Below, piece after piece: positions 2,015 through 64,000 of a stretch of DNA of 64,000 nucleotides. The stretch comes from Escherichia coli. GTDB taxonomy: Bacteria > Pseudomonadota > Gammaproteobacteria > Enterobacterales > Enterobacteriaceae. Numbering within the stretch: position 1 is the first letter of the stretch; each line of letters starts with the position of its first letter. The DNA lies in assembly GCF_029227855.1 (NCBI RefSeq), contig NZ_CP074356.1; one strand, 5' to 3'. Under the pieces are notes generated by a model. The model searched no databases and was not told the origin of the DNA. It was given only the letters and a program-made list of their open reading frames with translations. Made by a program: the position numbers and the translations under genes.

Positions 2015-2139
2015 TGGTGGGTCGTGCAGGATGACTCGCTTCGCTCGCCCTACGGGCCGTCGCCGCGAGCGGCTCCGTTATTTCGCTGCGCTCAACTCGA
2101 ACCTGCTGCAGGTTCGAATCTTTGAGTATCGCAGATAGT
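2015..2139 (-). repeat. tRNA-Lys 3'-end fragment plus spacer between the two terminator copies
   Basis: Begins with tggtgggtcgtgcagga (the first 17 nt of the minus-strand tRNA-Lys genes) then diverges; also contains tcgaacctgc. Related fragments at 2404 and 2897. Confidence 0.5.
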
Positions 2140-2168
2140 AAAAAAGCGCCTTTAGGGCGCTTTTTTAC
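2140..2168 (-). terminator. Rho-independent terminator immediately downstream of the last tRNA-Lys gene
   Basis: Same palindrome as 1984-2012, starting 3 nt after the tRNA 3' end on the transcribed (minus) strand. Confidence 0.7.
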
Positions 2169-2170
2169 AT

Positions 2171-2246
2171 TGGTGGGTCGTGCAGGATTCGAACCTGCGA
2201 CCAATTGATTAAAAGTCAACTGCTCTACCAACTGAGCTAACGACCC
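2171..2246 (-). tRNA. lysQ: tRNA-Lys (UUU anticodon)
   Basis: 76 nt exact match to the canonical E. coli tRNA-Lys gene sequence (reverse complement GGGTCGTTAGCTCAGTTGGTAGAGCAGTTGACTTTTAATCAATTGGTCGCAGGTTCGAATCCTGCACGACCCACCA); symbol assigned by position in the cluster. Confidence 0.95.
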
Positions 2247-2279
2247 CTTGCGGGATTATGCTGCTTTAATCATTCAGGA

Positions 2280-2355
2280 TGGTGGGTCGTGCAGGATTCG
2301 AACCTGCGACCAATTGATTAAAAGTCAACTGCTCTACCAACTGAGCTAACGACCC
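2280..2355 (-). tRNA. lysZ: tRNA-Lys (UUU anticodon)
   Basis: Identical 76 nt tRNA-Lys sequence; symbol by cluster order. Confidence 0.95.
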
Positions 2356-2403
2356 ATACGGGTGTTACCTGAAAGATTTCTACTCGGAACCAATCTTTAA
2401 AAT

Positions 2404-2501
2404 TGGTGGGTCGTGCAGGATGACTCGCTTCGCTCGCCCTACGGGCCGTTGCTGGCGCAACGTTATCCTTCACGCTTAACATCTGAGTTTGATGTTAAAA
2501 T
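2404..2501 (-). repeat. Inter-tRNA spacer repeat containing a tRNA-Lys 3' fragment
   Basis: tggtgggtcgtgcaggatgactcgcttcgctcgccctacgggccgttgctggcgcaacgttatccttcacg; near-identical copy at 2897-2996. Confidence 0.5.
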
Positions 2502-2577
2502 TGGTGGGTCGTGCAGGATTCGAACCTGCGACCAATTGATTAAAAGTCAACTGCTCTACCAACTGAGCTAACGACCC
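2502..2577 (-). tRNA. lysY: tRNA-Lys (UUU anticodon)
   Basis: Identical 76 nt tRNA-Lys sequence; symbol by cluster order. Confidence 0.95.
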
Positions 2578-2580
2578 GAG

Positions 2581-2656
2581 TGGTGGGTGATGACGGGATC
2601 GAACCGCCGACCCCCTCCTTGTAAGGGAGGTGCTCTCCCAGCTGAGCTAATCACCC
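2581..2656 (-). tRNA. valZ: tRNA-Val (UAC anticodon)
   Basis: 76 nt match to E. coli tRNA-Val (reverse complement GGGTGATTAGCTCAGCTGGGAGAGCACCTCCCTTACAAGGAGGGGGTCGGCGGTTCGATCCCGTCATCACCCACCA). Confidence 0.95.
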
Positions 2657-2707
2657 GATACTGCGCTGGATACTACAAACTACTTCCACCGAACCCACCG
2701 TAATTAG

Positions 2708-2783
2708 TGGTGGGTCGTGCAGGATTCGAACCTGCGACCAATTGATTAAAAGTCAACTGCTCTACCAACTGAGCTAACGACCC
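2708..2783 (-). tRNA. lysW: tRNA-Lys (UUU anticodon)
   Basis: Identical 76 nt tRNA-Lys sequence; symbol by cluster order. Confidence 0.95.
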
Positions 2784-2785
2784 GG

Positions 2786-2861
2786 TGGTGGGTGATGACG
2801 GGATCGAACCGCCGACCCCCTCCTTGTAAGGGAGGTGCTCTCCCAGCTGAGCTAATCACCC
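2786..2861 (-). tRNA. valT: tRNA-Val (UAC anticodon)
   Basis: Identical 76 nt tRNA-Val sequence, 2 nt after the preceding tRNA-Lys. Confidence 0.95.
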
Positions 2862-2896
2862 GATACTACGCTGGATACTACAACTAACTAGGTTAG

Positions 2897-2996
2897 TGGT
2901 GGGTCGTGCAGGATGACTCGACTTCGTCTCGCCCTTCGGGCCGTTGCTGACGCAACGTTATCCTTCACGTTTTACTACCGCTTCCACCTTAGCGAT
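2897..2996 (-). repeat. Inter-tRNA spacer repeat containing a tRNA-Lys 3' fragment
   Basis: Starts tggtgggtcgtgcagga then ...ccgttgctgacgcaacgttatccttcacg, near-identical to 2404-2501. Confidence 0.5.
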
Positions 2997-3072
2997 TGGT
3001 GGGTCGTGCAGGATTCGAACCTGCGACCAATTGATTAAAAGTCAACTGCTCTACCAACTGAGCTAACGACCC
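2997..3072 (-). tRNA. lysT: tRNA-Lys (UUU anticodon), first gene of the cluster
   Basis: Identical 76 nt tRNA-Lys sequence; promoter region lies between 3073 and cpoB. Confidence 0.95.
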
Positions 3073-3236: not shown

Positions 3237-4028
3237 TTACATCGCGTTCAGACGTTTTTGTGCCTGTTTAGCGCCATCAGTACCAGGGTATTTACTGATA
3301 ACCTGCTGGTATACGGCTTTCGCTTTTGCGGTGTCACCTTTGTCCTGCATGATGACGCCGACTTTAAACATCGCATCTGCAGCCTTTGGTGACTTCGGAT
3401 AGTTTTTTACTACCGAAGCAAAATAGTACGCCGCATCATCTTTTTTACCCTTGTTGTAGTTTAACTGACCCAGCCAATAATTGGCGTTTGGCAGGTAAGT
3501 TGAATCAGGGTAATTTTTGATGAAATTCTGAAATGCCACCATTGCGTCATCCTGGCGGGATTTATCCTGCACCAGCGCAATTGCTGCATTGTAATCCGTG
3601 TTTGCATCGCCGCTTTTCACCGGCGCGCCAGCATTCGCAGTACCAGCATCAGCTGTCGGCGTCGTTGATGCCGCCGCACCGCTTTGATCACCGCTGGTTG
3701 ATTGCGCCGCTGCACCACCGCTGCTGAGGCTGTCGATCTGCAACAGGATCTGCTTTTGCCGCTCCACGACCTGATTCAGTTGATACTGATTTTCCTGAAT
3801 CTGGCCACGCAGGGAATCAATATCGGATTGATTATCAGAGAGTTGTTGCTGGAGTTGGGTTAAAAGCTGGCTGTGAGCATTTGAAATACGCTCAAGTTGA
3901 GTGACGCGGTCTTCGACCGAGCCTGAGCCGACACTACTGATTGGTGCCTGAGCAAAAGCGGCCCAGGGGGCCGCTATACCAACCAGTAACGACAGACTCA
4001 ATAGTTGATGTCTGAAGTTACTGCTCAT
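3237..4028 (-). CDS. cpoB: Cell division coordinator CpoB (YbgF), TPR-repeat periplasmic protein
   Basis: 263 aa, signal peptide, coiled-coil Q-rich N-terminus and TPR-like C-terminus; downstream of pal. Confidence 0.9.
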   Translation of the reverse strand: MSSNFRHQLLSLSLLVGIAAPWAAFAQAPISSVGSGSVEDRVTQLERISNAHSQLLTQLQQQLSDNQSDIDSLRGQIQENQYQLNQVVERQKQILLQIDSLSSGGAAAQSTSGDQSGAAASTTPTADAGTANAGAPVKSGDANTDYNAAIALVQDKSRQDDAMVAFQNFIKNYPDSTYLPNANYWLGQLNYNKGKKDDAAYYFASVVKNYPKSPKAADAMFKVGVIMQDKGDTAKAKAVYQQVISKYPGTDGAKQAQKRLNAM

Positions 4029-4037
4029 GCAATTCTC

Positions 4038-4583
<546 letters not shown>

Positions 4584-55727: not shown

Positions 55728-57392
<1,665 letters not shown>

Positions 57393-57434
57393 CAGGCCAG
57401 CACCGATGCCTGATAAAACGCTCGCTGCGTTTTA

Positions 57435-58853
57435 TCAGGCTCCTTTCCTCGCTTCTTCGTACGCTGCCAGCGTTCGCAGCCTTGCCTCTTTGTGATCAAC
57501 TATCGGTTGCGGATAATCCAGCGTCACACCTGCTTTCTGCGCCCACTTCCACGGCTCATGCACCACTTTCCCTGGCACATCGCGCAGTTCCGGTAGCCAC
57601 TGGCGGATAAACTCGCCTTCGCGGTCAAATTTCTCGCCCTGGGTTGTCGGGTTAAAAATACGAAAATACGGCGCTGCATCGGTTCCGGTTGAAGCGGCCC
57701 ACTGCCAGCCACCGTTATTAGCTGCCAAATCACCATCAATCAGCTGCGACATGAAATATCGCTCGCCTTCGCGCCAGTCGATCAACAAATCTTTCACCAG
57801 AAAACTGGCTGTAATCATCCGTAGCCTGTTATGCATCCAGCCAGTGCTGTTAAGCTGACGCATGGCAGCATCGACAATCGGGTATCCCGTTTTGCCTTCC
57901 TGCCAGGCCTGTAAATGTGCGGGATTGCTCTGCCACTGCACACGATCCGTCCAGGCAATAAACGGACAATGTTTACACAACGAGGGGTAATACGTCATCA
58001 GATGACGGTAGAACTCGCGCCAGATCAGCTCACTAAGCCAGACACTACCGGCCCCACCGTCCAGCGCCTGCGGCTGTTCCGCCAACAGGCGATGCAGACA
58101 CTGGCGAGGCGATAACCCGCCCGTTGCCAGGCTGGCGGACAAACGGCTGGTACCTTCAACAGCCGGAAAATCTCTTTGTTGCTCATACTCTCCGGCACCG
58201 TTCTGGCAAAACTGGCGTAATTGCGCAATCGCCGCTTTTTCTTCCACCGGGAAATGCGCAGTATCGAAAGGCTGACGAGGATAATTCAGCGTAATGGATG
58301 GCGCGGGTTCTATCATTCCGCTACTACGTACTTTTGGCGCAGCGACGCACTCCGGCATCCCTTCTCGCAGCCGTTTCAGCCAGGCATTTTGAAAAGGCGT
58401 AAAGACTTTGTACATCTCATGATTGCCAGTCATCACCGCGCCAGGCGGCAGGATCACGCTGTCATCAAATCCTTCACACACCACGTTACGCAGCGTTCTC
58501 TCAACCTGCACATCCCGCGCCCGCTCATTCACCTCATACTGATAGTTATAAAACAGATGGGTAACACGATTTTCCGCGCACACCTGTTCAACTATTTCGA
58601 CGCTGGCGGCAAAGTCATCCACTTCATGAAACAGCAAAGGAATGCCTTTTTCCGCCAGCGCGATTTGTAGCCCGTTCAGTTGTGCATTGATAAATTCAGC
58701 CTGACGCGGCGACATATTATGCGCCGCCCACTGGCGTGGTGTAGCGATATACAACGCCAGCACGCGTGCAGACGAATAGCGGCAAGCGGCAGCCAGTGCG
58801 AAATTATCGTGCAGACGTAAATCCTGGCGAAACCAGACCAGATGGGTAGTCAT
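57435..58853 (-). CDS. phrB: Deoxyribodipyrimidine photolyase
   Basis: 472 aa, MTTHLVWFRQDLRLHDNFALAAA. Confidence 0.95.
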   Translation of the reverse strand: MTTHLVWFRQDLRLHDNFALAAACRYSSARVLALYIATPRQWAAHNMSPRQAEFINAQLNGLQIALAEKGIPLLFHEVDDFAASVEIVEQVCAENRVTHLFYNYQYEVNERARDVQVERTLRNVVCEGFDDSVILPPGAVMTGNHEMYKVFTPFQNAWLKRLREGMPECVAAPKVRSSGMIEPAPSITLNYPRQPFDTAHFPVEEKAAIAQLRQFCQNGAGEYEQQRDFPAVEGTSRLSASLATGGLSPRQCLHRLLAEQPQALDGGAGSVWLSELIWREFYRHLMTYYPSLCKHCPFIAWTDRVQWQSNPAHLQAWQEGKTGYPIVDAAMRQLNSTGWMHNRLRMITASFLVKDLLIDWREGERYFMSQLIDGDLAANNGGWQWAASTGTDAAPYFRIFNPTTQGEKFDREGEFIRQWLPELRDVPGKVVHEPWKWAQKAGVTLDYPQPIVDHKEARLRTLAAYEEARKGA

Positions 58854-59359: not shown

Positions 59360-59476
59360 TACTGCTCCTGAACGGTTTACAGGAGTAAGTGTAGACGTTG
59401 GGAAATGATATTTGTGAAGTTAATCCTGTTGTAGCAGGGCAAGATTACGAAAGCCCGCTCCCCGCAAGGACTGACG

Positions 59477-60268
59477 TCAGGTAGTTTCTGTCCATGGCTG
59501 CCCTTTCCATTCAAACGTGAAATCAATAAGTTCATCAGGGACATCGCAAACAATGTGAAGACGGATTTCTTCTCTGCCGTGACTCTTTTCACTCATTGCG
59601 TAACTGCCATGCTCTGGATTATTTAATTCTTTCAGCGGAAACTTTTCCTCAAAGGCTTTATTTAGCCGCCCCTGGTTTCCTTTTACAGCGAATAAATAAT
59701 CACCGCCCTGTTTTTGTATCTTCTCTGCGATATCTTTCTGGCAACCCATCGCATCAGTTGTGATAATTTTTCCTTTAATATCCAACATGTTAAGAAGTTC
59801 AGGGATAGCTGTAATTTCATTGGATTTCTCATCCGTCCTGATCTGTCCGATGACCAGACTGTGCATTGTTGAGAACGAACTAATGACATGAATCGCTCCC
59901 CTGCGGCGACTCTAGTCATAAGAGTGCCGGAGCGTTTTTCCATCAATTGCAATGACGCCTTTATCATCTGAAGAATGGCAGTCACGCATCCAGTTAATAA
60001 AGCACTCGTGAAATTTTGCAGGACTGATACAGGATACAACTCTGGCAATGGTATCGTGAACAGGAATACCATTTTCAAAATCACCATATTGCTTCAAAAA
60101 ATCGAGATGTGTTTCCCCAAAATCCTCTATATCTTCCCAGCCTTCTGCACCAGAAATAACGGCACAAATAGTCAACAGTAGAATATCCGACAATTTATGT
60201 TCCACTTTCCAGGCTTGTCTGTAATCGGGGATAATAGAAATATGTTCCATCAATTTTTTAAGTTCCAT
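59477..60268 (-). pseudogene. H-repeat-associated (ISAs1-family) transposase interrupted by an in-frame amber codon and C-terminally truncated
   Basis: N-terminal segment [32 protein letters not shown]...[10 protein letters not shown], then TAG (complement of 59912-59914), then the same frame continues [40 protein letters not shown]...FEWKG and ends early. Both track ORFs 59912-60268 and 59477-59866 are in one frame. Confidence 0.8.
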
Positions 60269-60375
60269 TTTGTTCTCCTTAATTATGTAAGGAGTATTTG
60301 ATCATGTATAAGCAATAAAAAACAGCTTCAGGTAATGAGGAATATCTCAATTTTTAAACATAAAATGCGAATTAT

Positions 60376-60993
60376 TTAGTACAAAAAGTGTACTTCTGAT
60401 GATCTTTCCCTGTCCTTGGCACCATCATTTTTTGACGCTTCAAAAATACTACTACAAGTGAGTTTAGAAAACTCTTTTCCAGATAATTCTCCAGGTTGTA
60501 ATCCTCCGCCGCCAAAAATCCTACTCCCAGGATTTCCATACCTATTTAGAGCATATGAATAGCAATTATTTACGGCAAGATAATACGCATCTGAATTTAG
60601 TTCTCGATTGAATACTGGAGCAGGTTTATCAATTAAGCCCAGCGGATCAATAGAATAGGTTGGATGTATGGAAGCATATACATACTGATTCCACCCGCCT
60701 TCCAGCCCAATCGGATCCTGAGTGATATACCGCCCCTGCAGCGGGTCATAATAGCGGTGGCGGTTGTAATACAGGCCGGACTCCTCATCATACTGCTGCC
60801 CCGGCAGACGGATAAGCTGCTGCAGGTGCTGCGGGTTCTCTTCAGTCAGCAGGTTGTCCCATTCATCATATTCTGCGCACCATTCTGTTGCCCCGTCAGG
60901 GCTGATAAGCGTCAGCGGCAGGCCGCGATAGTCGCAGTGGTAGAGGTGGATTATTCGCAGTGATCTATATGCCAACGTCATCTTATTTTTCAT
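60376..60993 (-). CDS. Orphan Rhs C-terminal fragment (core-end homology plus distinct toxin tip)
   Basis: First about 100 aa ([82 protein letters not shown]) parallel the end of the main Rhs core at 62.0-62.3 kb; the remaining about 100 aa are unrelated to the main Rhs tip. Confidence 0.75.
60700..60970 (-). repeat. Rhs core 3'-end homology block (copy 1; partner at about 62020-62290)
   Basis: Nucleotide-level near-identity, e.g. gtgatataccgcccctgcagcgggtcataatagcggtggcggttgtaatacaggccggactcctcatcatactgctg at both loci. Confidence 0.8.
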
Positions 60994-61045
60994 CTACTCC
61001 AACGAGTAGACAAGTTTTTTATTAAACCATTTATACCTTTTACGA

Positions 61046-61549
61046 TTAAATTTTCTTATGTAATAGAGGTGAATAATCTTCCCAAAAATCCATACAAGCT
61101 TTACTTGCATAAAAGAATCCAGCGTCTGATTCATAAGACATAAACTGTGCAATAATAGATAGTTGTATATCTGAAAAATTAAAAACAAAATTCAAAAAAT
61201 CATCGTGATCCCGATACTCAGGACATAAATATTGTTGAATAAAATCGGATTCAAAAACCCAAAAATCATTCTTATTAAACAACGAGGCATAAATATACAG
61301 AGGGATGTAATAGCAGAATACTTTCTCAGGGAGGAATGTAATTCCTAACTCTAAAGCATAAGAGTCATCCTTTATTTTAAAATTGTTGGCTATTTCATTC
61401 CATTGTTTCTTTTGGAAAAAATTATATACAATATCCAGTTCCTCCAGCCCTGTAATATCATTTGAAATATGAGGTAATGGCTGGCATGGGAAATGAATCA
61501 TAAGTTCATCATAGACTGCACTCTCGTTAGAGAAAATTATTTTTTTCAT
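61046..61549 (-). CDS. Probable Rhs immunity protein (RhsI) for the main Rhs toxin tip
   Basis: 167 aa AT-rich ORF starting [12 protein letters not shown]; its ATG overlaps the Rhs stop codon (ATGA); location typical of rhsI genes. Confidence 0.65.
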
Positions 61550-64000
61550 TTTATTAAGCCACTGCAATCAGCTGCTGTTTTATATGCTTTATTCTCTTCT
61601 TCCATATGGGCCTTATCTCCACCACCAAAGCACTGATTATTAATCTGCTTTCTGACCGAAGCGCACGCCAAATTTATCTCGTACCGTCTCAATATTTCTT
61701 TTCTCAGCATCTGAGGAGCGCAAGCTCTAGACTGGTTACATAATCTGTTTTTTTCATTTTGTAAGTCACTCAGGTTCTGGGGACTACAGTTACCACCAGG
61801 ATTTACACCTGACTTATGTTCATCTGTTAATTTGTCGGCTTCTGGATTAACTTTACGGCCATATTGATCTCTGCGTTGTTGCCCACTTTGGATAACACCA
61901 CCTGATGAAAACAAACCGCAACTCATCAGTGCTACAACACTAAGAATTAACGGATTTAACCCTTGTGGGTCTATCTCTGAGATCGGATTTAACGGATACT
62001 GATAAAAATTCCATCCCCCCTTCAGTCCAATCGGATCCTGAGTGATATACCGCCCCTTCAGCGGGTCATAATAGCGGTGGCGGTTGTAATACAGGCCGGA
62101 CTCCTCATCATACTGCTGACCCGGCAGGCGGATGAGCTGCTGCAGCTGATGCGGGTTCTCTTCATTCAGCTGGTTACCCCATTCATCGTATTCTGCGTAC
62201 CACGCTGTTGTCCCTTCCGTGCTGACAAGCGCCAGCGGCAGGCCGCGATGGTCGCAGTGGTACAGGTGGATTTTTCGCGCCGGCGTGTACACCGGGTCCA
62301 TCTGGTTTTGCATCTGCTCCACCGTCAGGCCGCACGATGCCAGCCAGCGGCGGCTTTCCTCGCTCACCCGGTCAGTAAGGATTTCACTTTCCAGCCGGTC
62401 GAGCATCTGCACCAGCACCGGCGGGAACACCACTCTGCCACCGTCTTCGCCGCCGGACTGCTGAAGGGCATCCGCCAGGCTGCGGCGCTGCGTTTTCGCC
62501 AGCTCACCGGTGGCGGTTTCAACTCTGATGAGTGGCGTGAAGCTCCCCGGCTGATAAACCGTCTGGATGCGGGTTCTGTCGTTCTGTATTGTGGTCAGCC
62601 GGTCGCCGTCCCAGCCGTACCAGGTCACTTCCGGTTTCCGTGACAGCGACATCCAGCCCGTCAGGTCCCGTTCACGCCGCCATACCCGTTTTGCCACCCT
62701 GCGGCCCAGCGGGTCGTAAAGATAGCGACTTTCGACCAGCGGCTCTGCATATTGTGTCCGCGTGTAGTGCACCAGCCGGTGCCGGCTGTCGTAATGATAC
62801 CGGTGAGTCCGCTCATCATCCGTGCGGATAACCCCTTCCGGGATGAGGTCGGTTTTCTCTGTCAGCCTGCCGTGACGGTCATACCGGTAAAGATAGTGCG
62901 CGTCACGGGCGATACGGTTATCCGGCCACATGCTGAGGGTGCTGTCCGGGTGCAGCTCCGGGTCGGGCAGGCGGTTGCCTGCCGGGTCCGTGGCATACGG
63001 GATGCGGATATCCAGGTTCGCTGCCGTGGTGTGGACGCCGGTCAGCCTGCCGGTGTCGCTGTAGCTGTAACTCCGGGTCTGGCGCGGGCTGCTGATGCGG
63101 ATGAGTTCGCCGTTGTCGTTCCAGGTGTAATCGCGGTCATACTGCAGGCTGTTCAGGTGCTGGCTCTGTAACTGCCCGGCAGGGGTGTAAGCGGTGGTGA
63201 GTTCATAACGGCCGAAGCTGCGCAGCGTTTCCCGGTGCAGGCGGTCGCGGGTGAAATCCACCAGCGGTGTGTCGCCGAGTTTCATGCCTGACAGCCAGCC
63301 GCTGCCGTAGGTCAGCCATTCCACGGCGGGCAGGCTGTCCGGTATACAGCGGTTCGCCAGTCCCTGCGCGTTGTAAGCATGTCTGGTTTCATGCTGCCAG
63401 AGCAGTGCTTCCGTCTGCGGGTGATGCACCGTCTGGCGCTCACCGGTCAGGCGGCCTTTCTCATCATACCCGTAATGCACCGTCACCCGGTGGCCTTCGC
63501 TGAGATAGCTGATTTGTGTCAGCCAGCCGCGTTCGTCGTACCGCCACTGTTCTGCGGTTTCACCATTCACCGTTCGCTGTGTGATGCGGTCTGCTTCGTC
63601 ATAGTGCCAGTGGGTGACCAGCCCCTCATCCTCGCTGCGGATAAGTTTGCCGGTCAGGTCGTGGTGATAACGCTGTGTGCGGCCGTCAAAGCCGGTTTCC
63701 TGTATCAGCCGGTCGAGTACATCGTAACGGAAGGTGGTGTGGCTGCCGTTTTCACTGGTCAGGCGGATGACCCGTCCGGCAGCATCGTATTCCATACTGC
63801 GCGTCAGACCACCCTGCGTGGTACGGATGGCCTTTCCCCACGTATCGTACTGTGTCCCGTTTCTGCTGCCGTCCGGGGCAATGACGGCGGTCAGGTCACC
63901 GGCGGCGTTGTATTCATACCGCGTTTCATGGCCCTGCATGTCTTTCACCGCAATTAACTGTCCACGGCTGTCGTATGCGCGGTACTGACTCAGGCCTTCC
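61546..64000 (-). CDS. rhsC: Rhs protein, C-terminal part (YD-repeat core plus polymorphic toxin tip); 5' end beyond the window
   Basis: YD-repeat-rich translation (…RYDAAGRV…[10 protein letters not shown]…), core-terminating DPxGL motif, then a distinct C-terminal domain of about 140 aa; symbol by synteny with ybgA-phrB only. Confidence 0.8.

Follow-up and report, generated by a model that had tools for sequence, protein, structure and literature searches.

The two direct-repeat blocks of Rhs core-end sequence at the rhsC locus of the Escherichia coli DNA analyzed here (a stretch of 64 kb, referred to as the window) are very likely the scar of a C-terminal displacement, in which the displaced orphan tip has since decayed through an ISAs1 element, leaving recombination between the blocks as a dead end. 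This reading draws on the anatomy of the locus, the truncation of the orphan tip, the counts of alternative arrangements among complete genomes and the chimeric make-up of the blocks, all of which are direct observations. An earlier note made from the sequence alone had proposed a toxin switch; with its orphan reduced to a truncated remnant, the locus does not function as a switch between two toxins.

Results

The locus is that of E. coli rhsC (ybfA-rhs-ybgA), within the gene order kdp-ybfA-rhs-...-ybgA-phr. The reading frame of the main rhs gene is open from position 63999 down to its stop at 61546 (Table 1); in near-identical genomes the product has 1379 aa, the N-terminal 562 codons lying outside the window. 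The part inside the window matches RHS_repeat (PF05593, E = 1.3e-39, six stretches) as well as TIGR01643, and aligns with profile positions 575-1261 of NF041261 (RHS_core). These matches are complemented by a core end (PF03527, E = 3.5e-15, and TIGR03696) that is followed by a PxxxxDPxGL motif, and the GC content is 0.62 in the core, 0.41 in the main tip and 0.30 in rhsI-main, the gene downstream. In another genome (L001), the full-length counterpart of the gene carries the annotation "RHS element core protein", and its N-terminus contains DUF6531 and a KPAARQGD motif, with a Pfam PAAR match (E = 0.013) that falls below the cut-off of that model. The combination of YD/RHS repeats, a core end with DPxGL and a variable tip marked by a drop in GC identifies the main gene, on sequence grounds, as a Rhs polymorphic toxin.

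The start of rhsI-main overlaps the stop of rhs by 4 nt, and its product has only a weak match, to DUF6714, below the curated cut-off. The exact protein is found at the rhsC locus in all 10 contexts listed, and thousands of public assemblies have it in their index. The gene always travels with the Ntox16 tip and is presumably its cognate immunity gene.

Table 1. Features of the rhsC locus, in window coordinates.
Feature	Position	Strand	Remarks
Main rhs gene	61546..64000	-	C-terminal 817 codons and stop; gene continues past the window end
Main repeat block	62008..62278	-	271-nt core-end copy; encoded peptide ends GLKGGWN
60-nt identical run in main block	62059..62118	-	Block positions 161-220; 60739-60798 in the orphan block
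PxxxxDPxGL motif, main Rhs	61957..61986	-	Marks the toxin tip start
Main toxin tip	61549-61956	-	Contains the Ntox16 domain
Ntox16 domain of main tip	61558..61797	-	Pfam PF15523, E = 1.3e-11 (5e-13 with the tip alone as query)
rhsI-main, presumed immunity gene	61046..61549	-	167 aa, ATG at 61549; RefSeq CDS WP_000720081.1 in L001
AT-rich spacer	60959..61045	-	GC 0.31
5' edge of orphan fragment	60959-61003	-	~45 nt of degenerate core continuation, ~63% identity
Orphan repeat block	60688..60958	-	271-nt core-end copy; PF03527 and TIGR03696 matches
PxxxxDPxGL motif, orphan	60634..60663	-	Behind the orphan repeat block
Orphan toxin tip remnant	60413..60633	-	Residues 1-74 of 147; includes the conserved NNCYSYA cysteine
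Orphan ORF as now read	60376..60993	-	ATG start, 205 aa; RefSeq pseudogene
ISAs1-family (H-repeat, ybfD-like) remnant	59501..60412	-	DDE_Tnp_1_assoc and DDE_Tnp_1 matches

A repeat search and a blastn comparison of the window with itself revealed an ungapped direct repeat of 271 nt (E ~1e-102), whose copies have a start-to-start spacing of 1320 and bracket the main tip (61546-62007) and the immunity gene (61046-61549). We detected no other copy pair of this block within the 64-kb window. Both blocks are coding on the minus strand and share the same reading frame. They match PF03527 (E = 1.7e-10 for the orphan copy) and TIGR03696 and are each followed by a PxxxxDPxGL motif, so that the description of them as Rhs core-end homology in the earlier note was correct, as were their direct orientation (the self-comparison yields a single direct repeat) and their placement on either side of the toxin-immunity pair; that the genes lie on the minus strand had gone unmentioned. 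The repeat is real and its length of about 270 bp was right, but pairwise alignment makes "near-identical" a generous term: the copies are 89.7% identical, with 28 mismatches over 271 nt that translate into 16 amino-acid differences in 90 codons. The coordinates first given (60700-60970 and 62020-62290) were about 12 nt too high.

The longest exact run shared by the blocks measures 60 nt, followed by one of 31 nt, and past the blocks, upstream on the coding strand, a similarity of ~63% extends for ~45 nt more. The minimal efficient processing segment of E. coli is roughly 20-30 bp. By its length, identity, exact runs and common frame, the homology is thus predicted to be long enough for RecA-type recombination, with the 60-nt run as the likeliest crossover site and also the putative site of the original insertion crossover; the 10% divergence of the blocks should lower the rate. 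That the repeat reflects chance similarity or an assembly artefact has negligible probability, and we rejected this explanation in view of the E value, the presence of the same two-tip arrangement in ~242 independent complete E. coli genomes, which therefore cannot all be misassembled, and the occurrence of rhsI in thousands of assemblies.

The orphan fragment (60413-61003) is made of ~316 nt of core end and an older tip, with neither the N-terminal nor the repeat region of a full-length rhs, and RefSeq lists it as a pseudogene of an incomplete Rhs. About half of the genomes that carry the arrangement have a 23-nt duplication, which lies at the block's 5' edge and falls in the 5' part of the ORF at 60376-60993. 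The orphan tip is unrelated to the main Ntox16 tip and matches the main tip of E. coli strain SW4848 with 100% identity as far as position 60413, where the left end of an ISAs1-family element abuts it. The position of the tip-IS junction (60412/60413) agrees with the ISAs1 matches found in more than 5,000 genomes, which begin at 60412-60418, and homology to the IS-free locus picks up again near 59425. The element is itself a remnant, its transposase gene having an internal stop and lacking the 3' end. The last 11 codons and the stop of the orphan ORF are contributed by the IS end.

The break is a severe one for the toxin domain. It removes 11 of the 18 positions that are conserved in an alignment of the tip family (A3), including the invariant His104 and Arg107, and in the AF2 model of the intact tip (pLDDT 93) the entire beta-sheet lies beyond it. 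The cognate immunity gene is also gone: where a homologue of the SW4848 gene (L002:6483-6857) would be expected there is none, and the tip runs directly into the ISAs1 remnant. The orphan rhs-CT/rhsI module hence comprises neither a complete toxin domain nor a downstream cognate immunity gene, and we infer that the 74-residue tip remnant is inactive. These features also bear on the idea that the orphan is expressed alone, starting internally, and acts inside the cell as a toxin or regulator, with the repeat being incidental. The ATG-initiated 205-aa ORF and the precedent of Salmonella rhs orphans reported to behave like type II toxin-antitoxin systems (PMC7043789) speak for such expression, but a promoter scan found no sigma-70-like promoter upstream of the ORF, its toxin domain is truncated and has no antitoxin or immunity partner, RefSeq treats it as a pseudogene, and in about half of the carriers the 23-nt duplication lies in its 5' part. 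We consider independent expression extremely improbable.

The intact form of the orphan tip is still found elsewhere. At the same locus, 41 of 5,426 complete E. coli genomes carry it on a full-length Rhs, together with a 124-aa immunity gene and with neither an orphan nor an IS at the locus; five of these loci were inspected (L002 and L005-L008). Neither the intact tip nor its immunity protein had a match in sequence searches of Pfam, NCBIfam and PDB, a profile search of the tip against PDB matched only the Rhs core-end flanks of the alignment members, and a Foldseek search of the tip model against PDB returned nothing significant. The intact tip points to a large un-named toxin-domain family, putatively one of NlpC/P60 or papain-like cysteine hydrolases that would act in the periplasm.

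The earlier note predicted that recombination between the blocks would remove the main toxin-immunity pair and place the orphan tip on the full-length Rhs, thereby switching the deployed toxin. The predicted rearrangement holds up: because both blocks share a frame, a crossover would fuse the orphan tip in frame, with a loss of 1320 bp and a product of 1329 aa. The predicted consequence does not, since the orphan tip is cut in half at 60412/60413 and recombination between the blocks therefore gives no working toxin switch. In the set of 5,426 complete E. coli genomes, which we searched by junction counts and with a balanced 1000-nt diagnostic query, the diagnostic query detected the predicted main-orphan recombinant in none (0/5,426), and the junction counts gave no surplus pointing to recombinants. 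An exact look-up of the two predicted chimeric Rhs proteins found neither on record, which is a weak negative because only exact matches count.

A switch of this kind has been demonstrated experimentally in Salmonella Typhimurium LT2, where the locus was first duplicated and main and orphan rhs then recombined (Koskiniemi et al. 2014, PMC3967940), and among CDI systems an orphan of Yersinia pestis Microtus has become joined to the main gene through a natural deletion (Poole et al. 2011, PMC3150448). The window resembles LT2 (PMC3967940) in having a full-length rhs with its tip and immunity gene, followed by an orphan core-end fragment with a different tip; in having direct repeats through which the main gene can acquire the orphan tip at the cost of rhsI-main; and in that the orphan tip type is attached to a full-length rhs in other strains. 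It departs from LT2 in the homology, which is 271 bp at 89.7% as compared with 522 bp at 95%; in the orphan toxin and immunity gene, which are intact and functional in LT2 whereas here the tip has been halved by ISAs1 and no immunity gene remains; and in the recombinants, which were observed in LT2 and number zero among the 5,426 genomes. The CDI orphan cdiA-CT/cdiI modules (PMC3150448) likewise lie behind a full-length toxin gene and keep a short conserved upstream stretch, but the delivery protein belongs to another family, CdiA with a VENN motif rather than Rhs with DPxGL, and the CDI orphan is intact.

As a working switch, in which the main pair is deleted and the orphan toxin deployed on the full-length Rhs, the repeat pair could thus point to its direct in-frame copies with their 60-nt identical run, to the Salmonella and Yersinia precedents and to a tip type functional enough to be retained on the full-length Rhs of 41 genomes. 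The tip at issue nevertheless lacks residues 75-147 with both invariant residues, has no immunity gene while the deletion also takes rhsI-main, has left no recombinant in the genomes searched, and is joined to shorter and more divergent homology than in LT2. We regard the switch as very unlikely.

The sequences of the blocks point instead to the scar of a displacement. Compared with genomes of the resident type, positions 1-160 of the orphan block show 20 (ST2747) or 16 (SW4848) differences, as opposed to a single one in the next 386 nt past position 160. The main block displays the converse, with 2 or 7 differences in its 5' part and 7 in positions 161-271. The 28 discriminating sites accordingly have a reciprocal distribution, with a switch between positions 160 and 221 and a few discordant sites, and in ST2747 all 6 of the 6 discriminating sites of the 3' part are orphan-like (hypergeometric P = 7e-5). 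The two blocks are reciprocal chimeras, as would be expected if an Ntox16-rhsI cassette had been inserted by homologous recombination.

The discordant sites consist of orphan-type alleles at positions 68-81 and 103-108 in SW4848-type cores and at 103 and 108 in ST2747, and a second haplotype among the carriers (L003) has orphan/resident alleles at 8 sites of the main block. These sites and the second haplotype led us to reject the view that one clean crossover explains everything; a single simple crossover is an idealization. Later gene conversion, or exchange with other rhs paralogues, has blurred the chimeric record.

We infer the order of events, and the selective cost of deletion, as follows. 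An incoming cassette, consisting of a core-end fragment, the Ntox16 tip and rhsI, would have entered a resident rhs by homologous recombination, with the crossover in the 60-nt stretch where the core end is most conserved; this insertion would have duplicated the core end and displaced the resident tip downstream. Later, an ISAs1 end would have taken away the far half of this tip along with its immunity gene. The blocks can still recombine, through RecA-type deletion or by releasing a 1320-bp circle, and the deletion product would be an in-frame Rhs with half a toxin domain and no new immunity gene, from which Ntox16 and rhsI have been lost. Deletion of rhsI-main would leave the cell exposed to Ntox16 delivered by its siblings. 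For the 41 single-tip genomes, the sequences are equally compatible with an ancestral state and with reversion.

The donor of the cassette was sought in two ways: no relative of rhsI turned up when 100,044 species-representative genomes were scanned at the peptide level, and a distant-mode search of plasmids found no Ntox16-rhsI cassette, the only match being a core-like one of 51 nt. These searches weigh on the possibility that the repeat pair is kept as an excision and integration site, through which a 1320-bp circle moves the cassette to other rhs genes or cells. Reciprocal chimeric blocks would fit the insertion of such a unit, an episomal pool of tips has been proposed (Jackson et al., PMC2935791), and the two main-block haplotypes, which toggle at sites discriminating main from orphan, show continuing exchange. 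Against this, the cassette occurs in E. coli at the rhsC locus only, and neither on plasmids nor in the representative genomes of other species; a linear fragment with two crossovers gives the same pattern with no circle, and we saw no sign of selection for the repeat itself. An excision site is therefore unlikely, and slightly less likely still is its stronger form, in which the blocks are an attachment-site pair that reversibly excises the cassette as a 1320-bp circle to supply a mobile pool of Rhs tips, and the decayed orphan is kept since its core-end fragment enables excision and re-capture.

Discussion

The displacement that we favor for the origin of the blocks has a close counterpart in the model of Jackson et al. 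(2009, PMC2935791). Shared with that model are a GC-rich core with AT-rich tips, a dissociated tip downstream whose core fragment belongs to the same clade, the occurrence of one tip in attached or dissociated form at the same locus depending on the strain, and insertion by homologous recombination within the core end; the circular episomal intermediate of the model is a proposal only. The same survey found E. coli clade I rhs loci to be generally devoid of dissociated tips (PMC2935791), whereas the present lineage has one at the rhsC position. Main-plus-orphan rhs architecture, its origin by displacement and the fusion of orphans via core-end homology have all been published already.

The rhsC locus also offers a comparison within the species. 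As described by the Hill laboratory and in the K-12 annotation, E. coli K-12 rhsC has an H-repeat (ISAs1-family ybfD/ybfL) downstream, adjoining ybgA, and an orphan rhs fragment downstream of the main gene. The window agrees with K-12 in the chromosomal position (ybfA ... ybgA-phr), in the ISAs1 element beside ybgA and in the presence of a downstream orphan; it differs in its main tip, which is Ntox16 here, and in its orphan, which here is a different and shorter one with an IS end inside the tip.

The significance of these findings beyond correct annotation is small. The correction gained is that the orphan survives as a truncated relic. As a by-product, its intact form is a pointer to a large un-named toxin-domain family. 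The blocks themselves provide a clean base-level example of the reciprocal hybrid repeats that homologous insertion of a tip cassette would be expected to leave.

Anatomy of the rhsC locus and its direct repeat

The main rhs gene encodes RHS repeats, a PF03527 core end and, at the C-terminus, Ntox16 (family search), and its product aligned to the last 687 positions of the NCBI RHS_core model. Its stop codon overlaps the start codon of the presumed immunity gene, rhsI-main, by 4 nt, suggesting translational coupling of toxin and immunity. The 205-aa ORF beyond the AT-rich spacer, with a PxxxxDPxGL motif of its own, is an orphan core-end fragment whose tip differs. All genes involved lie on the minus strand. 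The core has a GC content of 0.62, which drops to 0.41 in the Ntox16 tip, 0.38 in the orphan tip and 0.30 in the immunity gene. A 4.7-kb stretch is 99.8% identical to E. coli strain AR_0006, in which kdp-ybfA and ybgA-phr flank the locus and the complete Rhs has 1379 aa; the locus is thus the rhsC position, and the window is E. coli. In a near-identical genome with a full-length rhs (L001), the Rhs begins with a PAAR-like motif (MSGKPAARQGD...) ahead of DUF6531, with Pfam PAAR_motif scoring only E=0.013, below the cut-off.

A repeat search of the last 10 kb found a single long direct repeat, an ungapped pair of 271-nt blocks spaced 1320 nt start to start, and blastn of the region against the whole window recovered the same pair (E ~1e-102) and no third copy. 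Both blocks are GC islands (0.57). The earlier note had described two near-identical direct blocks of about 270 bp bracketing the main tip and immunity gene; the blocks and the bracketing are borne out by the repeat and the gene layout, with positions about 12 nt lower, but "near-identical" overstates a pairwise identity of 89.7% (28 mismatches, base by base). Without a mismatch, the blocks align for at most 60 nt (block positions 161-220), and the next-longest such run is 31 nt. Codon phase is identical for both blocks in their ORFs, and the encoded residues differ at 16 of 90.

Features of the rhsC locus and its surroundings (window coordinates unless a locus is named)
Feature	Position	Strand	Remark
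Main rhs, in-window part	window end down to stop at 61546	minus	open frame
Main block	62008-62278
rhs/rhsI-main overlap	61546-61549
rhsI-main, 167 aa	61046-61549	minus	ORF, presumed immunity gene
AT-rich spacer, 87 nt			between rhsI-main and orphan ORF
Orphan ORF, 205 aa	60376-60993	minus	PF03527 + TIGR03696
Orphan block	60688-60958
23-nt duplication site	about 60958-60963; L003:5700-5730		L003, second main-block haplotype
Last base shared with SW4848 tip	60413
Broken ISAs1-family transposase gene, then ybgA, phr			downstream of orphan
ISAs1 pseudogene end to resumed homology	59425-59500
dtpD/phr inverted repeat	57391-57457
tRNA array with RtT repeats; cpoB/ybgF RNA thermometer	2015-3072 and 3999-4137
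PAAR-like motif, then DUF6531	L001:4316-4400		outside window
SW4848 immunity gene, 124 aa	L002:6483-6857
IS21 in Ntox16 tip	L004:4482-7062		strain WP4-W18-ESBL-09
IS21 in rhs core	L014:1642-4265		a carrier genome

Three observations concern the wider window. An imperfect inverted repeat between the convergent dtpD and phr genes (31-nt arms, 74% complementary) is probably a shared terminator. The seven-gene tRNA array, which has RtT repeats, and likewise the cpoB/ybgF RNA thermometer are normal parts of an E. coli chromosome and have no connection with the rhs finding.

Both blocks appear to be hybrids of resident and incoming sequence

We compared the 28 block-discriminating sites with single-tip, resident-type genomes, in which the orphan's tip type is intact on a full-length Rhs at the same locus. 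Between positions 6 and 160, resident cores carry the main-block allele at 20/22 sites in ST2747 and 15/22 in SW4848; all six sites between positions 221 and 265 have the orphan-block allele in these cores. Put the other way round, 16-20 of the first 160 nt of the orphan block depart from resident cores, as against 1 of the following 386 nt, and the reverse holds for the main block. This reciprocal pattern argues that both blocks are hybrids, the main block joining a resident 5' part to an incoming 3' part and the orphan block an incoming 5' part to a resident 3' part, with the switch falling inside the 60-nt identical run. A unit of short core-end fragment, Ntox16 tip, rhsI and spacer would have entered by a homologous crossover in the core end, and the allele pattern is the footprint expected from such an insertion, as Jackson et al. 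(PMC2935791) propose in their C-terminal displacement model. Two crossovers with a linear fragment would leave an identical pattern.

The record is not perfectly clean under the insertion model, a few discriminating sites being discordant. A second haplotype is present in about half of the roughly 243 carriers; its sole representative examined (L003) carries the orphan or resident allele at 8/28 main-block sites; there the blocks differ at 21 sites and have an 83-nt identical run in common. In about half of carriers, L003 among them, the orphan block has a 23-nt tandem duplication, CACTGCGAATAATCCACCTCTAC, at its 5' edge. These sequences indicate that the blocks later took part in gene conversion or exchange.

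The orphan tip is truncated by an ISAs1 element

Most of the orphan-specific tip DNA was matched in 283 genomes; in some the match ends at query base 275, under a full-length "RHS element core protein". At the same locus, SW4848 has one full-length Rhs (1391 aa) ending in the orphan's tip type, then a 124-aa ORF and directly ybgA, with neither orphan nor IS; this single-tip form occurs in 41 of 5,426 complete genomes (five inspected). Aligned to the SW4848 tip, the window orphan is 100% identical up to a point beyond which the window reads CAGGGAAAGATC..., which is the end of an ISAs1 element. With a junction-spanning probe, matches begin exactly there in >5,000 genomes, and the tip-IS junction itself is found in only 242. 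The ISAs1 is truncated on the ybgA side too, and about 75 nt separate the annotated pseudogene end from resumed homology to the IS-free locus upstream of ybgA.

Beyond DPLGL the intact tip runs for 147 residues, of which the window retains 74, followed by 11 IS-derived codons. No relatives of the intact tip were found in Pfam, NCBIfam or PDB sequences; its family is large (825 cluster representatives at E<=1e-3). His104 and Arg107 are present in all 65 sequences of an alignment, in which 16 further positions reach at least 90% conservation; 11 of the 18 lie past residue 74. In the AlphaFold2 model (pLDDT 93.3, pTM 0.87), helices form the N-terminal part, one of them starting at Cys24, and a five-stranded sheet from residue 84 on carries His104. 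We infer that the remnant, devoid of the putative catalytic His and most of the fold, is inactive. Because the SW4848 immunity protein begins with an apparent Sec-type signal peptide (MFTKLSIAILLAFSAYVHA|E), the intact orphan-type toxin may act in the periplasm; the Ntox16 immunity protein of the window has no such leader. The orphan's cognate immunity gene is absent from the window locus. Two hallmarks of a functional orphan module, an entire toxin domain and its own immunity gene, are missing from the locus.

Recombination between the blocks and its trace in populations

Every element here is an already known feature of rhs loci: GC-rich core, AT-rich exchangeable tips and dissociated downstream tips (PMC2935791), orphan rhs-CT/rhsI modules that elsewhere occur joined to full-length genes (PMC3150448), recombination across the homology that main and orphan share (PMC3967940), and tips replaced by toxin-immunity cassettes (PMC3482391). 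In PMC3482391, Ntox16 appears as an alpha-helical domain that bears R and [DNE]xxH motifs and for which no immunity family is known. In its RHS repeats, core end and exchangeable tip the locus matches an Rhs toxin, with a presumed immunity gene, and it also matches a displaced tip.

A crossover between the blocks would delete 1320 bp, or release a circle of that size, and fuse the orphan remnant in frame onto the main core in a predicted Rhs of 1329-1333 aa, with loss of Ntox16 and rhsI-main. The deletion and fusion that had been proposed are mechanistically possible, the blocks being direct and in frame, but the fused protein would hold only half a toxin domain. Efficient RecA-dependent recombination in E. 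coli requires a minimum of roughly 20-30 bp, which the 60-nt run exceeds. In Salmonella, recombination was seen only after locus duplication, because loss of rhsI-main leaves recombinants open to their siblings' toxin (Koskiniemi et al., PMC3967940). Homology spans 522 bp at 95% in Salmonella, versus 271 bp at 89.7% here, and the rate should be lower than in Salmonella, lowered further by mismatch repair.

The Ntox16 tip with rhsI and the orphan's 5' junction each occur in 243 genomes; set beside the 242 tip-IS junctions, there is therefore no junction surplus betraying a fused allele. A diagnostic 1000-nt query (a chimeric block and the 275-nt tip remnant between 227-nt stretches of main-only core and ISAs1), of which only a recombinant could attain at least 80% coverage, found no such genome among the 5,426 complete genomes, the best being resident type at 77%, and two predicted chimeric proteins had no exact match on record in a large assembly collection. 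Switching of the deployed toxin, as the earlier note had it, is unsupported for this genome, with the tip truncated, its immunity gene gone and no recombinant found. In the large assembly collection, 7,835 blocks list the exact rhsI protein, and its genomic context is the same locus in 10 of the 10 listed; the arrangement is common and stable. An IS21-family element interrupts the main rhs in some carriers, in the tip or in the core, so that the main toxin has repeatedly been inactivated in this lineage.
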